Below are positions 2,507 through 9,650 of a stretch of DNA of 64,000 nucleotides, piece after piece. The notes beneath the pieces are model-generated. The model made no database searches. It was given only the letters and a program-made list of their open reading frames with translations, and was not told where the DNA came from. The stretch is from Actinomycetes bacterium (GTDB lineage: Bacteria; Actinomycetota; Humimicrobiia; Humimicrobiales; Humimicrobiaceae). The stretch is taken from the NCBI GenBank assembly GCA_022396035.1, contig JAIOXO010000001.1, forward strand, positions 129,769 to 193,768. Direction: 5' to 3'. Position numbers and translations under genes: made by a program. Each line of letters starts with the position of its first letter. Within the stretch, counting starts at the first letter, position 1.

Positions 2507-3223
2507 TTAATATGCTTGCCCATTTTTAGCTATAAACAGTTTAAAGACGTCACCTAAAGCCAGGTTTTCTTCCCTTACTATTACCATTCCCACTTTCTTA
2601 ATATTTTGCCCCGTGTCCCTGTTTATGTTTATGCCTGTTAAAAGCCTGGTTATGGGATTAAGCAAATCCTGCAGGAAGGAAGCCAGCCTTCCCTTGCTCC
2701 TAACATGTTCAATCATAACTGCTCTTCCTTCCGGTTTTAACACCCTTTGAATTTCTTTAAGCCCTTTTACCGGATGGGGAACAGAGCAGAAAACAGTGCT
2801 GGTAATAACGTAATCAAAACTCTTAGATTCAAAAGCCAGATTTTCTACATCCATTTCGGCTAAAACAATATTCCTTCTGTTTGAGCCAGCAAGTTTTTTG
2901 CGGGCCCTATCAAGCATTCCTGCCGAAAAATCTATGCCTGTAACCTCTGCATCAGGGTGGTAATAATTAATGTTCTTGCCGGTGCCAATTCCCACATCTA
3001 AAATCTTTCCTGTAAGGGCTGAGAAATATTTTTTCCTCAGCCTAGAATAAAATAAATATTCCAGGGGAAATTCTACAAAGTCATAGAATCTTGCATTACG
3101 GTTATATTTTTTTTGTGATTTTAAAGCTTGCTCCACTTCATTCAACCTAAAACCCCTATAGCCATGCCCATTATAAATATGCTTTAACCCCAAGCCCATA
3201 TCCAATAGAGATAAATATTCCAC
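2507..3223 (-). CDS. Class I SAM-dependent methyltransferase
   Basis: Motif I ILDVGIGTGKN; GIDFSAGMLDRARKK; LKPEGRAVMIEH; typical Methyltransf_11/25 layout. Confidence 0.8.
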   Translation of the reverse strand: MEYLSLLDMGLGLKHIYNGHGYRGFRLNEVEQALKSQKKYNRNARFYDFVEFPLEYLFYSRLRKKYFSALTGKILDVGIGTGKNINYYHPDAEVTGIDFSAGMLDRARKKLAGSNRRNIVLAEMDVENLAFESKSFDYVITSTVFCSVPHPVKGLKEIQRVLKPEGRAVMIEHVRSKGRLASFLQDLLNPITRLLTGININRDTGQNIKKVGMVIVREENLALGDVFKLFIAKNGQAY

Positions 3224-3263
3224 GTCTTTAAACGCCTGTCTAATAACTTCCCCGGGCTTGCTT

Positions 3264-4082
3264 TTATTTATTAACCAGTTTATTCATGCTTCCCATACGG
3301 TAGCCATCAATATCCAGGGTTACATAAAGGTAGCCCTGATTCTTAAACTCACGTATTACATCTTCTGTTAAACTTCTATCTAAAAACTTTCCCAGTTCTT
3401 TTGACTGCACTTCTATCCTCGCTATACTGCCATGGTGCCTCACCCTTACTTGGGTAAATCCTTTATCTAACAGGAATGTTTCCAGTTTATCAATAATCCT
3501 TAACAGACGTTCGGTTATTTTGGTCCCGTAAGCTATCCTGCTTGCAAGGCAAGCAGAAGAAGGTCTGTCCCAGCCAGCAAGCCCCGTTTGCCTGGATAAA
3601 ATTCTTATCTCCTGTTTGCTTAGGTGGCAATATTTTAGAGGGCTCCTTACCCCCAATTGCTGGGCAGCCTTAGTGCCAGGCCTGTAATCTGAAATATCGT
3701 CCCAATTCTGCCCGTCCAGAACATTAGATATATTGTATTTCTTAGCTATTTCAATTATCTTCCCAAGCTCCCCGATTTTGCAGTAATAGCACCTTAGACG
3801 GTCATTATTTACAAAATTTGGGCCTTCAAGCCCGCTTTCTACCACCACATGCCTTACATGGTGTTTTTCTACAAATTCTGAGGCCCTATCCATATCCCTC
3901 CGGGGAGAAGAAGGAGATTTTAAGGTAATAGCCAAAACTTTTTTGCCCAAAACATCCGATGCTACTTTTACCAGGAAAGAGCTGTCTACCCCTCCAGAAA
4001 AGGCGACTGCCGCCCTTTCCATGGCTTTAAGCTCTGCTTTTAGCTTTAGAAATTTTTCCTCCGTAGTCTGCCTATCAGGCAC
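3264..4082 (-). CDS. LarE-family PP-loop ATP pyrophosphatase / ATP-dependent sulfur transferase
   Basis: PP-loop AVAFSGGVDSS. A LarE-like PSSACLASR motif contains the candidate sulfur-donor Cys. Additional Cys pair CYYCK. TIGR00268-like architecture. Overlaps or sits tight against neighbouring sulfur genes. Confidence 0.7.
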   Translation of the reverse strand: MPDRQTTEEKFLKLKAELKAMERAAVAFSGGVDSSFLVKVASDVLGKKVLAITLKSPSSPRRDMDRASEFVEKHHVRHVVVESGLEGPNFVNNDRLRCYYCKIGELGKIIEIAKKYNISNVLDGQNWDDISDYRPGTKAAQQLGVRSPLKYCHLSKQEIRILSRQTGLAGWDRPSSACLASRIAYGTKITERLLRIIDKLETFLLDKGFTQVRVRHHGSIARIEVQSKELGKFLDRSLTEDVIREFKNQGYLYVTLDIDGYRMGSMNKLVNK

Positions 4083-4100
4083 TTTTATCCGCCTTCCCTC

Positions 4101-5237
4101 CTATGTTAAAGCCCCCCTTATATCATTCTTTAAGTCTACCTTATTCTCTATTCCCACCGAAAGCCTTACCAGGTTATCATTAATTTGCCTTTCTTTTCTC
4201 TGGGCTGCTGAAAAAGCTGCATGGGTCATCCTGGGAGGATAGCATACCAGGGACTCTACTCCCCCTAAACTTTCTGCCAGCAGGAAAAGCTTAAGTTTTG
4301 ATATAAAGCTTTTTACTTCCTGGTACCCCCCTTTAAGCTCCAGGCTTATCATTGCCCCAAAGCCGCTCATCTGCCTGGAAGCAATATCATAATACCTGCT
4401 TTCAGGCAGCCCAGGATAGTATAATTTTTCTACTTTGGGATGCCTGTTAAGGTAATCTGCCAGGTACAGGGCATTTTTTTCATGCTCCCTCATCCTCACT
4501 GCCAGTGTTTTTATTCCCCTAATTGCCAGCCAGCAATCCCAGGGCCCGGGGATTGCACCAGCCGCATTCTGGTAAAACTTTAAGCGATTATGAATTCCCC
4601 TGTCTGAGGTAACTACTGCGCCTCCTACAATATCGCTATGACCGGATAAGTATTTAGTGGTGCTGTGCACCACTATATCTGCTCCCAAGGCCAATGGCTT
4701 CTGGAAATAAGGGGTGGCAAAGGTATTATCCACTGCCAGCATAATTTTTTTATCCCTGGCCAGGGTAGACAGCTTGCAGAGGTCGACTATCTTTAGCAGG
4801 GGATTAGTAGGAGTCTCCACCCAGATAAGCCTGGTATTTTTTTTCAGAGCTTTTTTAAAGCTTCCCATATCATCTACATTAGCATAGCTGGCCTTAAGAC
4901 CCCAGGGTGCAAAAACTTTTTCTATCAGGCGGTAGGTCCCCCCATATATGTCATCACCCACTACCACATGGTCCCCTGTTGAGAGCAAGCTGAACACGGC
5001 AGCTGTAGCCGCTACGCCCGAAGAGAAAGCAAGTCCATATTTTCCGCCCTCCAGTGAAGCCACCAGTTTTTGCAGTATATCTCTGGTGGGGTTACCGGTC
5101 CGCGAGTATTCATATCCCTTGTGTTTGCCAATTTCTTCCTGCTGGTAAGTAGAAGTCTGGTACACAGGGGTAGTCACCGCCCCTGTCAGAGGGTCAGGCT
5201 GCTGGCTGGAATGTATGGCTTTGGTCTCAAATTTCAT
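4101..5237 (-). CDS. Cys/Met-metabolism PLP enzyme, cystathionine gamma-lyase/gamma-synthase family (MccB/MetB-like)
   Basis: PLP-lysine motif STTKYLSGHSD. Full-length similarity to the Cys_Met_Meta_PP family. Overlaps the upstream CBS gene by 11 nt (translational coupling). Confidence 0.85.
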   Translation of the reverse strand: MKFETKAIHSSQQPDPLTGAVTTPVYQTSTYQQEEIGKHKGYEYSRTGNPTRDILQKLVASLEGGKYGLAFSSGVAATAAVFSLLSTGDHVVVGDDIYGGTYRLIEKVFAPWGLKASYANVDDMGSFKKALKKNTRLIWVETPTNPLLKIVDLCKLSTLARDKKIMLAVDNTFATPYFQKPLALGADIVVHSTTKYLSGHSDIVGGAVVTSDRGIHNRLKFYQNAAGAIPGPWDCWLAIRGIKTLAVRMREHEKNALYLADYLNRHPKVEKLYYPGLPESRYYDIASRQMSGFGAMISLELKGGYQEVKSFISKLKLFLLAESLGGVESLVCYPPRMTHAAFSAAQRKERQINDNLVRLSVGIENKVDLKNDIRGALT

Positions 5238-9067: not shown

Positions 9068-9123
9068 ATTATTTCCTCCCCGTATTAATGTTGCTAAAAT
9101 AAAAGTATAACCTAATCCACTAG

Positions 9124-9570
9124 CTAGATGTGGAACATCAATGGCTGGTTTTTTTGCTTGTGCCTGTGTTTTTCTGCCAAATCCCCCAAATTTTCAGAAT
9201 CCAGCATATCTACAATTTTTTTGCTTACCTTGCTCCACAGCCCCCTGACCGCACAGGTATCGGCTCTATCGCATTTCTGGGGCCGGTTAACGCAGTCCAC
9301 AAGGTCAAGGGAGCCCTCCAGGGCAGTGAGTATTTCAGTTATTGTTATTTTGGATGGATCCCTGGCCAGGGTATATCCCCCATAAGCGCCCCGGTATGAT
9401 TTTACTAGGCCGGCAGCCTTAAGGCTGGGGACAATTTGCTCCAGATATCCTTCAGAAATAGACTGCCTCCTGGCGATATCCTTTAGCAGCACCAAACCCT
9501 TCCCGTAACCTAAAGCCAGCTCTAGCATAAAGCGGGTGCCGTATCTTCCTTTTGTAGATATACCCATCAT
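9124..9570 (-). CDS. Rrf2-family transcriptional regulator (IscR/CymR-like, three Cys ligands)
   Basis: N-terminal w[18 protein letters not shown]; Cys triad C..CDRADTC typical of cluster-binding Rrf2 proteins; first gene of the sulfur operon. Confidence 0.85.
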
Positions 9571-9614
9571 AGTACTTCTTATAACACTACTATTCTTATT
9601 ATTTCAATATGTTT

Positions 9615-9650
9615 AGTAAGGATTATAATAGTTTAAAATACAATGTCAAG
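9615..9650 (-). promoter_or_regulatory. Sigma-A-type promoter for the Rrf2-metY sulfur operon
   Basis: On the minus strand: TTGACA (9649..9644), a 16-17-nt spacer, TATAAT (9627..9622); about 50 nt upstream of the Rrf2 start codon. Confidence 0.45.

Follow-up and report, generated by a model that had tools for sequence, protein, structure and literature searches.

A Predicted Rrf2-Controlled Sulfur-Assimilation Operon of an Actinomycete Encodes a Variant Radical SAM Protein and a LarE Homologue

Results

Organization of the operon

This study concerns a group of seven genes in a 64,000-nt stretch of DNA, here called the window, from an Actinomycetes bacterium of the family Humimicrobiaceae (contig JAIOXO010000001.1, positions 129,769 to 193,768). 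In the order of transcription, these genes encode an Rrf2-family regulator, the homocysteine synthase MetY, a 381-amino-acid radical S-adenosylmethionine (SAM) protein, cystathionine β-synthase (CBS), an enzyme of the cystathionine γ-lyase (CGL) family, a LarE homologue, and a SAM-dependent methyltransferase (Table 1). An earlier reading made from the DNA letters alone (the sequence-only reading) had proposed that they constitute one minus-strand operon. The open reading frame (ORF) listing of the window contains the seven codirectional minus-strand ORFs at exactly those coordinates, with profile matches to correspond, and we predict from the sequence that they represent a real operon. The earlier assignments of Rrf2, MetY, CBS, LarE, and the SAM methyltransferase likewise agree with the family profiles, and that of CGL agrees at the level of the CGL/γ-synthase family.

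The successive junction distances are +56, +26, -4, -11, +18, and +40 nt. Overlaps of 4 to 11 nt had been described between several genes; the sizes hold, but only two junctions overlap, namely, the stop of the radical SAM gene with the start of the CBS gene (4 nt) and the stop of the CBS gene with the start of the CGL gene (11 nt), and the remaining gaps measure 18 to 56 nt. A strong promoter had been placed at 9615-9650, and a perfect TTGACA-16-TATAAT sequence does lie there, upstream of the Rrf2 gene; it was the only 12-of-12 match in a promoter scan of positions 2000 to 11000. In an alignment of the leaders of four orthologous operons, both hexamers were invariant, and the 35 nt that follow the -10 box were strongly conserved and contained invariant blocks. 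Repeats of the TACTAC...TAGTA type occur at the same position in operons of the order Rrf2-LarE-MetY. A genome-wide operator search with a simple regular expression was of no use, with 6 hits where 4.2 were expected. The site scan of positions 2000 to 11000 detected no terminator-like hairpin downstream of the last gene, and an Rfam scan of the whole window at gathering thresholds detected no riboswitch or other known RNA in the operon leader; its matches, a tmRNA and two c-di-GMP-II elements, all lie elsewhere.

Table 1. Predicted genes and regulatory features of the operon (window coordinates)
Feature	Position	Strand	Evidence
Sigma-70-type promoter	9622..9649	-	TTGACA 9649-9644, 16-nt spacer, TATAAT 9627-9622; direct reading
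Conserved leader, candidate Rrf2 operator (CCTTACTAAA...ATAAGAATAGTAG)	9587..9621	-	Between -10 box and Rrf2 start codon
Rrf2-family regulator, 148 aa	9124..9570	-	PF02082, 132 bits; TIGR00738, 128 bits (cutoff, 73)
MetY, O-acetylhomoserine sulfhydrylase (homocysteine synthase), 433 aa	7766..9067	-	TIGR01326, 653 bits (cutoff, 495)
CX8CX2C variant radical SAM enzyme, 381 aa	6594..7739	-	NF045502, 351.3 bits (cutoff, 125); PF04055, 42 bits
Cystathionine β-synthase, 456 aa, C-terminal CBS domain pair	5227..6597	-	TIGR01137, 540.6 bits (cutoff, 510.25); PALP and CBS domains
Cystathionine γ-lyase/γ-synthase family pyridoxal phosphate enzyme, 378 aa	4101..5237	-	PF01053, 497 bits
LarE-family PP-loop ATP-dependent sulfur transferase, [4Fe-4S] type (SGGVDS, C98xxC101, C178)	3264..4082	-	TIGR00268, 294.9 bits (cutoff, 150)
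Class I SAM-dependent methyltransferase, ORF of 238 aa	2507..3223	-	Methyltransf_11, 82 bits; no NCBIfam model at cutoff

The Rrf2 protein carries three cysteines (C93-x6-C100-x5-C106) with the spacing that is typical of Fe-S-binding, IscR-like members of the family. Only the superfamily model passes its threshold; the equivalog model for CymR (NF047409) gave 135.8 bits, under its cutoff of 195. It is reasonable to infer that the regulator may control its own operon through the predicted site at 9587-9621.

The strong family matches of MetY, CBS, and CGL point to a route from sulfide through homocysteine to cysteine. MetY would form homocysteine from sulfide and O-acetylhomoserine, the latter being supplied by MetX and MetW, which are encoded on another contig, and CBS and CGL would then convert homocysteine and serine to cysteine. 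The CGL-family enzyme scored 513.2 bits with the γ-synthase model PRK07811 (cutoff, 513) and 502 bits with the MccB-type model (cutoff, 594); it is read here as a γ-lyase because of its context, in particular, the overlap with the CBS gene. Both directions of transsulfuration had previously been read into the operon. MetY represents direct sulfhydrylation, however, and CBS with CGL represents reverse transsulfuration; the two directions are therefore not both present. As a whole, the locus would be an autoregulated, Rrf2-controlled sulfur-assimilation operon. A search of the literature found no paper that combines its genes.

The radical SAM protein

The 381-amino-acid protein had been described as atypical, radical SAM-like, and uncharacterized, and this description stands. 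Its match to NF045502 spans profile positions 2 to 356 of 357, and the PF04055 match, which covers residues 142 to 301, exceeds the gathering score of 29.5. The cysteine motif reads C125-x3-C129-x4-C134-x8-C143-x2-C146. The sequence-only reading had given Cx3Cx4Cx9Cx2C in place of the canonical CxxxCxxC; it was correct that the motif is noncanonical, but the longer spacer is x8 rather than x9 and the first cysteine is not conserved. Across 33 bacterial and archaeal sequences, the canonical CX3CX2C triad is invariably replaced by C134-x8-C143-x2-C146, and eight cysteines (129, 134, 143, 146, 189, 257, 361, and 364) are invariant, while C125 is not. Clusters with a CX8CX2C motif are recorded as motif variants at RadicalSAM.org, in Megaclusters 4-6-1, -3, -5, and -6 (PMC9477430).

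Membership in NF045502 (variant_rSAM) is supported both by the score and by the CX8CX2C replacement, but this family is a sequence definition, with no member whose reaction is known. The MetY-linked group is a distinct orthologue set within it, because the other NF045502 members in the phylum are only 24 to 26% identical and occur in unrelated contexts. These distant members, with neighbors such as UbiA and FeoB, were uninformative as a guide to function.

Searches of the Protein Data Bank (PDB) with the protein sequence and with a family profile returned weak matches to MoaA only; in that alignment, the TGGC of the query corresponds to the TGGE SAM-binding motif of MoaA, with a cysteine in place of the glutamate. 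Structure prediction had been proposed for 6594..7739. An AlphaFold (AF2) model built with 33 family members had a mean predicted local distance difference test (pLDDT) score of 91.6 and was, with confidence, a radical SAM barrel; the top Foldseek matches were all radical SAM barrels as well, the best PDB entries being MgmA, LipA, PylB, and BioB. MgmA ranked first by E value and superposed poorly (root mean square deviation, 11.4), and the barrel core was about equally similar to LipA, PylB, BioB, ThiH, and HydE (query-normalized template modeling score, approximately 0.44). The N-terminal region of about 120 amino acids is highly conserved and has no structural counterpart. Folded alone, the N-terminal 121 residues gave a pLDDT of 59.5, too poor for a fold search, and this region is probably not an independent domain but packed against the barrel. 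On the basis of the PF04055 match, the barrel fold, and the CX8CX2C motif, the protein is predicted to be a noncanonical radical SAM enzyme.

LipA (5exk and 4u0p) and BioB (8vdw) were among the best matches to the barrel core (Foldseek E values of 6e-8 to 4e-7), and, as in these two enzymes, there are invariant cysteines beyond the SAM-cluster motif. However, their family models failed on the protein (LipS2, 34.5 bits against 270; BioB, 22.6 bits against 377), the motifs for auxiliary ligands differ, and the conserved N-terminal region is absent from both. If C134, C143, and C146 bind the SAM-cleaving cluster, then five of the eight invariant cysteines are left, which is enough for an auxiliary cluster. 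The protein would thus be a two-cluster enzyme in which some of C129, C189, C257, C361, and C364 may bind the second cluster.

Distribution and neighborhoods of the radical SAM orthologues

More than 580 homologues of the radical SAM protein were found. Neighborhoods were analyzed at 70 loci from species-representative genomes by clustering the neighboring ORFs and naming the clusters with NCBIfam; the orthologues at these loci are 50 to 87% identical, and all are at least 55% identical except for one divergent full-length locus at 50%. The carriers are all anaerobes and belong to at least 10 phyla. They include Actinomycetota, Chloroflexota, Syntrophia-type Deltaproteobacteria, Omnitrophota, Desantisbacteria, Firestonebacteria, Elusimicrobia, Spirochaetota, and Acidobacteriota, the Firmicutes Thermincola, Desulfosporosinus, Paradesulfitobacterium, and Dethiobacter, and, among the archaea, Bathyarchaeia and Methanoregula/Methanocella.

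MetY lies within a few kilobases of the radical SAM gene at 21 of the 70 loci, in at least nine phyla; for a gene present in one or two copies, such adjacency would be expected by chance at well under 1%. MetW is directly upstream of the radical SAM gene at 17 loci and MetX is upstream at 15, giving the string MetY-MetX-MetW-radical SAM. CBS, CGL, or both are nearby at about 15 loci, and twice (L055 and L057) the radical SAM gene is located between them. An Lrp/AsnC regulator was found at 13 loci, immediately upstream in most; NifS was found at 4 and a ThiI-like PP-loop enzyme was found at 6. Where MetY is not adjacent, it was still detected above the cutoff in 20 of 24 genomes, two more being cut by contig ends, compared to 9 of 14 control genomes. 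True CBS, by comparison, is present in only 6 of the 31 radical SAM-positive genomes whose CBS is not beside the radical SAM gene. MetY, and not CBS, is thus the constant partner, and a dependence of the radical SAM protein on CBS was discarded for the same reason.

Direct sulfhydrylation modules (MetX-MetW-MetY) and the homocysteine synthesis pathway of COG1900 (HcyBio) and NIL-ferredoxin are recurrent neighbors of the radical SAM orthologues, but as described, these pathways neither include nor require a radical SAM enzyme. The sequence-only reading had named two results that would speak against it, namely, that the protein belongs to a characterized family unrelated to sulfur metabolism and that its gene neighborhood is not conserved in relatives. 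The family proved to be uncharacterized, and conservation of the sulfur neighborhood reaches well past the close relatives. Sequence comparison across domains therefore supports a connection of the radical SAM protein with sulfur amino acid metabolism, and an undescribed step connected with homocysteine or cysteine is plausible.

One alternative is that the substrates of the enzyme are not sulfur amino acids at all and that it is a sulfur- or Fe-S-demanding enzyme for another product, such as a cofactor, that is merely coregulated with its neighbors. Sulfur islands do gather unrelated consumers of sulfur, as at the Omnitrophota locus L019; at roughly half of the loci, the radical SAM gene is accompanied by no more than an Lrp-type regulator or by unrelated neighbors; and the sulfur insertases LipA and BioB, which act on cofactors, are among the closest folds. 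We nevertheless consider this explanation unlikely, given the stop/start overlap with the CBS gene, the position of the radical SAM gene in MetY-MetX-MetW-x-CBS-CGL strings or between CBS and CGL, its near-universal co-occurrence with MetY at the genome level, and the scores of the LipS2 and BioB models, which are far under their cutoffs.

The same strict dependence on MetY could be taken to mean that the protein is a maturase of MetY (or of CBS), and the MetY-MetX-MetW-radical SAM strings would amount to a complete homoserine-to-methionine operon if it were an alternative methionine synthase that methylates MetY-made homocysteine. Both ideas have very little probability in our estimation. The MetY proteins linked to the radical SAM protein have no conserved cysteine or other distinctive target residue in comparison with unlinked MetY proteins, so that the maturase idea was set aside. 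Methylation of a thiol is possible without radical chemistry, and with SAM as the methyl donor there would be no net gain of methionine. The genome of the window yielded no MetE but encodes a stand-alone homocysteine S-methyltransferase domain protein together with corrinoid-domain proteins; these suggest a split MetH and speak, though weakly, against the synthase idea. The homocysteine S-methyltransferase domain protein is encoded on contig 40 (7670-8584; 305 amino acids), contigs 7 and 8 carry separate corrinoid-domain homologues, and the pterin-binding region of MetH has a weak match on contig 16; this set may constitute a split MetH.

Within the phylum of the window, orthologues were found in only six of 401 sampled genomes, and in a genome of the same genus (G234) the whole operon is absent. 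This distribution marks the radical SAM cassette as accessory, and horizontal movement is probable. Composition is not decisive in this regard, since the GC content of the operon (45.7%, compared to 41.8% for the genome) reaches only the 92nd percentile, and the patchy distribution is the better argument.

At several methanogen loci, other genes recur. Nitrogenase-like NifH/NifD/NifK homologues adjoin the radical SAM orthologue in Methanoregula/Methanocella (L060, L062, L064, L074, and L075), and together with an SsuA-like binding protein they account for 4 to 5 methanogen loci; the binding protein is present in L060 and L064, and an amino acid permease is present in L074 and L075. This arrangement recalls the sulfur salvage clusters of methylthio-alkane reductase.

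The LarE homologue

The LarE homologue aligns over its full length with the Lactiplantibacillus plantarum LarE structures (E = 2e-42) and has the PP-loop motif SGGVDSS at residues 29 to 35. Where the sacrificial L. plantarum enzyme has Cys176 only, the operon protein has C98xxC101 and C178, and these three cysteines are near invariant in 33 LarE homologues. In the LarE protein of Thermotoga maritima, such a CXXC-C triad is the site of a [4Fe-4S] cluster, through which the enzyme is catalytic (PMC9283937). The two proteins share the PP-loop SGGxDS motif, the triad, the conserved phosphate-binding arginines, and a third cysteine that is shifted by one residue relative to L. plantarum Cys176. Unlike the T. 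maritima gene, the operon larE is located in an Rrf2/MetY operon and not beside larB and larC, belongs to a clade of its own, and is accompanied by a second copy elsewhere in the genome, which yielded no LarA.

With regard to the P2CMN phosphate-binding residues (S180, R212, and R214 in L. plantarum), S181 is present, and R213 and R215 are near invariant in both the sulfur-context and the lar-context clades, as are R182, E201, and E224. The operon protein is 38% identical to a LarC-linked paralogue on contig 8, with which it shares the PSSACLASRI and VRVR motifs. Its nearest relatives (44 to 75% identical) are found in Rrf2-LarE-MetY-CysK(-MetX-MetW) operons that have no radical SAM gene or in full copies of the operon, and the context of relatives at 40 to 52% identity is mostly LarB/LarC. 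In an IQ-TREE phylogeny of 33 sequences, the ten sulfur-context LarE proteins formed one clade with 100/99 support, in agreement with FastTree; the context label changes a single time on the tree, which was matched by 0 of 500 shuffles, and only six positions set the clade apart.

The absence of larB and larC had been noted previously. This is true of the window, but both genes occur elsewhere in the genome, with scores above the cutoffs: LarC is encoded on contig 8, adjoining a second LarE, and LarB is encoded on contig 15. No LarA (Lar_N) was found in this genome despite the presence of LarB, LarC, and two LarE proteins. Similarly, LarB and LarC were above the cutoffs in 9 of 9 relatives tested, in positions not adjacent to the operon-type larE. 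Within the actinomycete family of the window, the two LarE types are mostly alternatives, and in three relatives (G115, G309, and G397) the sulfur-context protein is the only LarE, yet LarB and LarC are present. Since the LarE signatures are kept and the lar-linked LarE has been replaced in these three relatives, the operon protein is most likely a normal enzyme of nickel-pincer cofactor synthesis, that is, a new clade by context and an ordinary [4Fe-4S]-type LarE by function. It would thiolate the pyridinium biscarboxylate precursor of the cofactor in a [4Fe-4S]-dependent manner, and its gene would have been relocated into the sulfur regulon, presumably for a shared pool of sulfide or cysteine.

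A second possibility is that the operon LarE has acquired a new function, in which it would convert an adenylated carboxylate, on a small molecule or a protein, to a thiocarboxylate that serves MetY and CysK as a sulfur nucleophile, in the manner of the CysO and HcyS carriers; alternatively, its nickel-pincer cofactor might be used by a sulfur amino acid enzyme. MetY in Wolinella accepts protein thiocarboxylates, and the clade is monophyletic, always lies beside Rrf2 and MetY, and includes a member whose genome has two LarE proteins, LarB, and LarC and yielded no LarA. Moreover, users of nickel-pincer cofactors other than LarA have recently been described (PMC13524815). We regard a new function as improbable all the same: every catalytic and phosphate-binding residue of LarE is kept, with the six clade-specific positions as the only distinction; the operon encodes no carrier protein; and both the replacement in the three relatives and the mostly alternative occurrence of the two types suggest interchangeable enzymes.

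The sequence-only reading had gone further and had joined LarE and the radical SAM protein in one uncharacterized sulfur-trafficking or sulfur insertion step at homocysteine/cysteine synthesis. The two genes are indeed part of one operon in the window, as they are at L083, L095, and L096. The Omnitrophota locus L019 brings together the radical SAM protein, CBS, CGL, a ThiI-like PP-loop enzyme, CysK, HcyBio, NIL-ferredoxin, and a LarE homologue, and a second, unrelated PP-loop enzyme family is found near the radical SAM gene at the 6 loci already mentioned, with NifS at 4. Against this, the radical SAM gene occurs without larE at about 60 of 65 loci, and it is missing from at least seven operons that carry a LarE of this clade. 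The two are found together only in close relatives of the window, in the soda lake metagenome contig L083, and, loosely, in L019. A metagenome scan with LarE returned only 8 loci. In G058, CBS and CGL have been lost and larE is a pseudogene broken by stop codons, but MetY, the radical SAM gene, and the methyltransferase gene are intact. The ThiI-like neighbor has an RNA-binding NFACT-R_2 domain and is therefore probably a tRNA enzyme. Phylogenetic profiling had been suggested in order to see whether LarE co-occurs with the Cys-rich protein rather than with LarBC; at the loci compared here, each mostly occurs without the other, and LarB and LarC accompany LarE in all of the relatives tested. 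A partnership is thus not supported and in our judgment is quite improbable; of the proposal as a whole, a step, as yet undescribed, for the radical SAM protein is plausible, and the role of LarE as a new sulfur-trafficking protein finds no support. In L019, the sulfur island, at 4567-9572, follows the radical SAM-CBS-CGL genes.

The methyltransferase and the genomic setting

Profile matches of the methyltransferase are limited to general class I models. Its orthologues have 205 to 225 amino acids, compared to 238 for the ORF, and hence the true start may lie downstream. The gene is kept after larE in L083, L095, L096, and L123; every full copy of the operon has it behind larE, and operons with no radical SAM gene lack it. 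An analogy may be drawn with Bacillus subtilis, in which the methionine-to-cysteine operon yrrT-mtnN-mccA-mccB-yrhC is under the control of the Rrf2 regulator CymR. Both systems have an Rrf2-family regulator, a SAM methyltransferase, and a CBS-like enzyme; with the CGL-family enzyme read as a cystathionine γ-lyase, both would lead from homocysteine to cysteine. They differ in that the regulator described here is under the CymR cutoff, has three IscR-like cysteines, and is encoded by the first gene of its own operon; in that the CBS is a true serine-type enzyme with CBS domains, unlike that of the Bacillus operon; and in that MetY, the radical SAM protein, and LarE have no counterpart in the yrrT operon. 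By analogy with yrrT, the methyltransferase may produce S-adenosylhomocysteine, from which an S-adenosylhomocysteine hydrolase encoded at window positions 45162-46442 (minus strand) would release homocysteine.

The hydrolase gene is directly upstream of a gene for an IF-2B-family protein (44116-45180, minus strand), which is probably methylthioribose-1-phosphate isomerase, and the two form a methionine cycle/salvage pair 35 kb from the operon. The window is part of contig 7 of a 1.6-Mb genome that is 97.8% complete. MetX-MetW and a second Rrf2 are encoded on contig 8, and contig 22 carries an Rrf2-CysK-NifS set; with these genes and the hydrolase encoded in the genome, the substrates and side routes of the operon's pathway are therefore available.

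Contig 8 holds a second sulfur region, at 21.9 to 25.4 kb and 35 to 42 kb, with MetW, MetX, a divergent Rrf2, MetY2, NifS, the second LarE, and LarC. The second MetY copy aligns in two pieces and is possibly frameshifted, and repeats of the type ATAGAATTTATAG are common to the MetX/Rrf2 intergenic region and the region upstream of MetY2. In the window, AT-rich DNA (36% GC) lies on both flanks of the operon (1-2400 and 9700-10400), with an orphan ABC ATPase at 1594-2400 and an FTR1 iron permease at 10941-11768.

Discussion

In this study, we have examined an operon of known kind that contains one enzyme family of unassigned reaction; the earlier observation has been partly confirmed, and its interpretation has been partly supported. 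The best overall explanation, which we hold with moderate confidence, is that the locus is a sulfur-assimilation operon to which a radical SAM enzyme of the MetY pathway, a genuine LarE, and a methyltransferase that may form S-adenosylhomocysteine have been joined. The radical SAM enzyme, with its LipA/BioB-like barrel, would have a small-molecule substrate from the MetY pathway, and its likeliest role may be in the handling of sulfur, where it would provide or process the sulfur nucleophile or homocysteine.

Several points weigh against this explanation. The proposed sulfur-handling role is drawn from gene context and from resemblance of the fold, the auxiliary cluster is predicted from the invariant cysteines, and the suggested role of the methyltransferase comes from the analogy with yrrT. 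No sulfur gene lies near the radical SAM gene at roughly half of its loci, MetY is common in any case, as the control genomes show, and true CBS is rare among the radical SAM-positive genomes in which it is not adjacent. Furthermore, a shared supply of sulfur does not fully explain why the LarE clade is strictly and repeatedly found directly upstream of MetY, nor does it fully explain two LarE copies in a 1.6-Mb genome that yielded no LarA.

It can be envisioned, more tentatively, that two separate phenomena meet in this operon. The radical SAM enzyme might carry out an undescribed, MetY-bound step of anaerobic sulfur assimilation, examples of which would be a radical step, involving the auxiliary cluster, by which the sulfur nucleophile is made or delivered, or one by which homocysteine is formed or recycled. 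The LarE clade, for its part, might mark a link between the nickel-pincer cofactor, or thiocarboxylate chemistry of the LarE type, and sulfur amino acids in genomes that have LarB, LarC, and LarE and that are without LarA. This combined proposal is possible but doubtful.

The synthesis of homocysteine and cysteine is regarded as fully mapped, and yet a radical SAM protein travels with MetY in organisms as distant as Actinomycetota, Bathyarchaeia, and methanogens and keeps 55 to 87% identity among them. A lesser lead is offered by the LarE clade linked to MetY, at a time when roles for the nickel-pincer cofactor in enzymes other than LarA are being sought. Cultivable carriers (Thermincola, Desulfosporosinus, and Paradesulfitobacterium) make the question of the radical SAM enzyme directly testable, and identification of its reaction would extend the central sulfur metabolism of anaerobes by one step and bring a new chemistry into the radical SAM superfamily.

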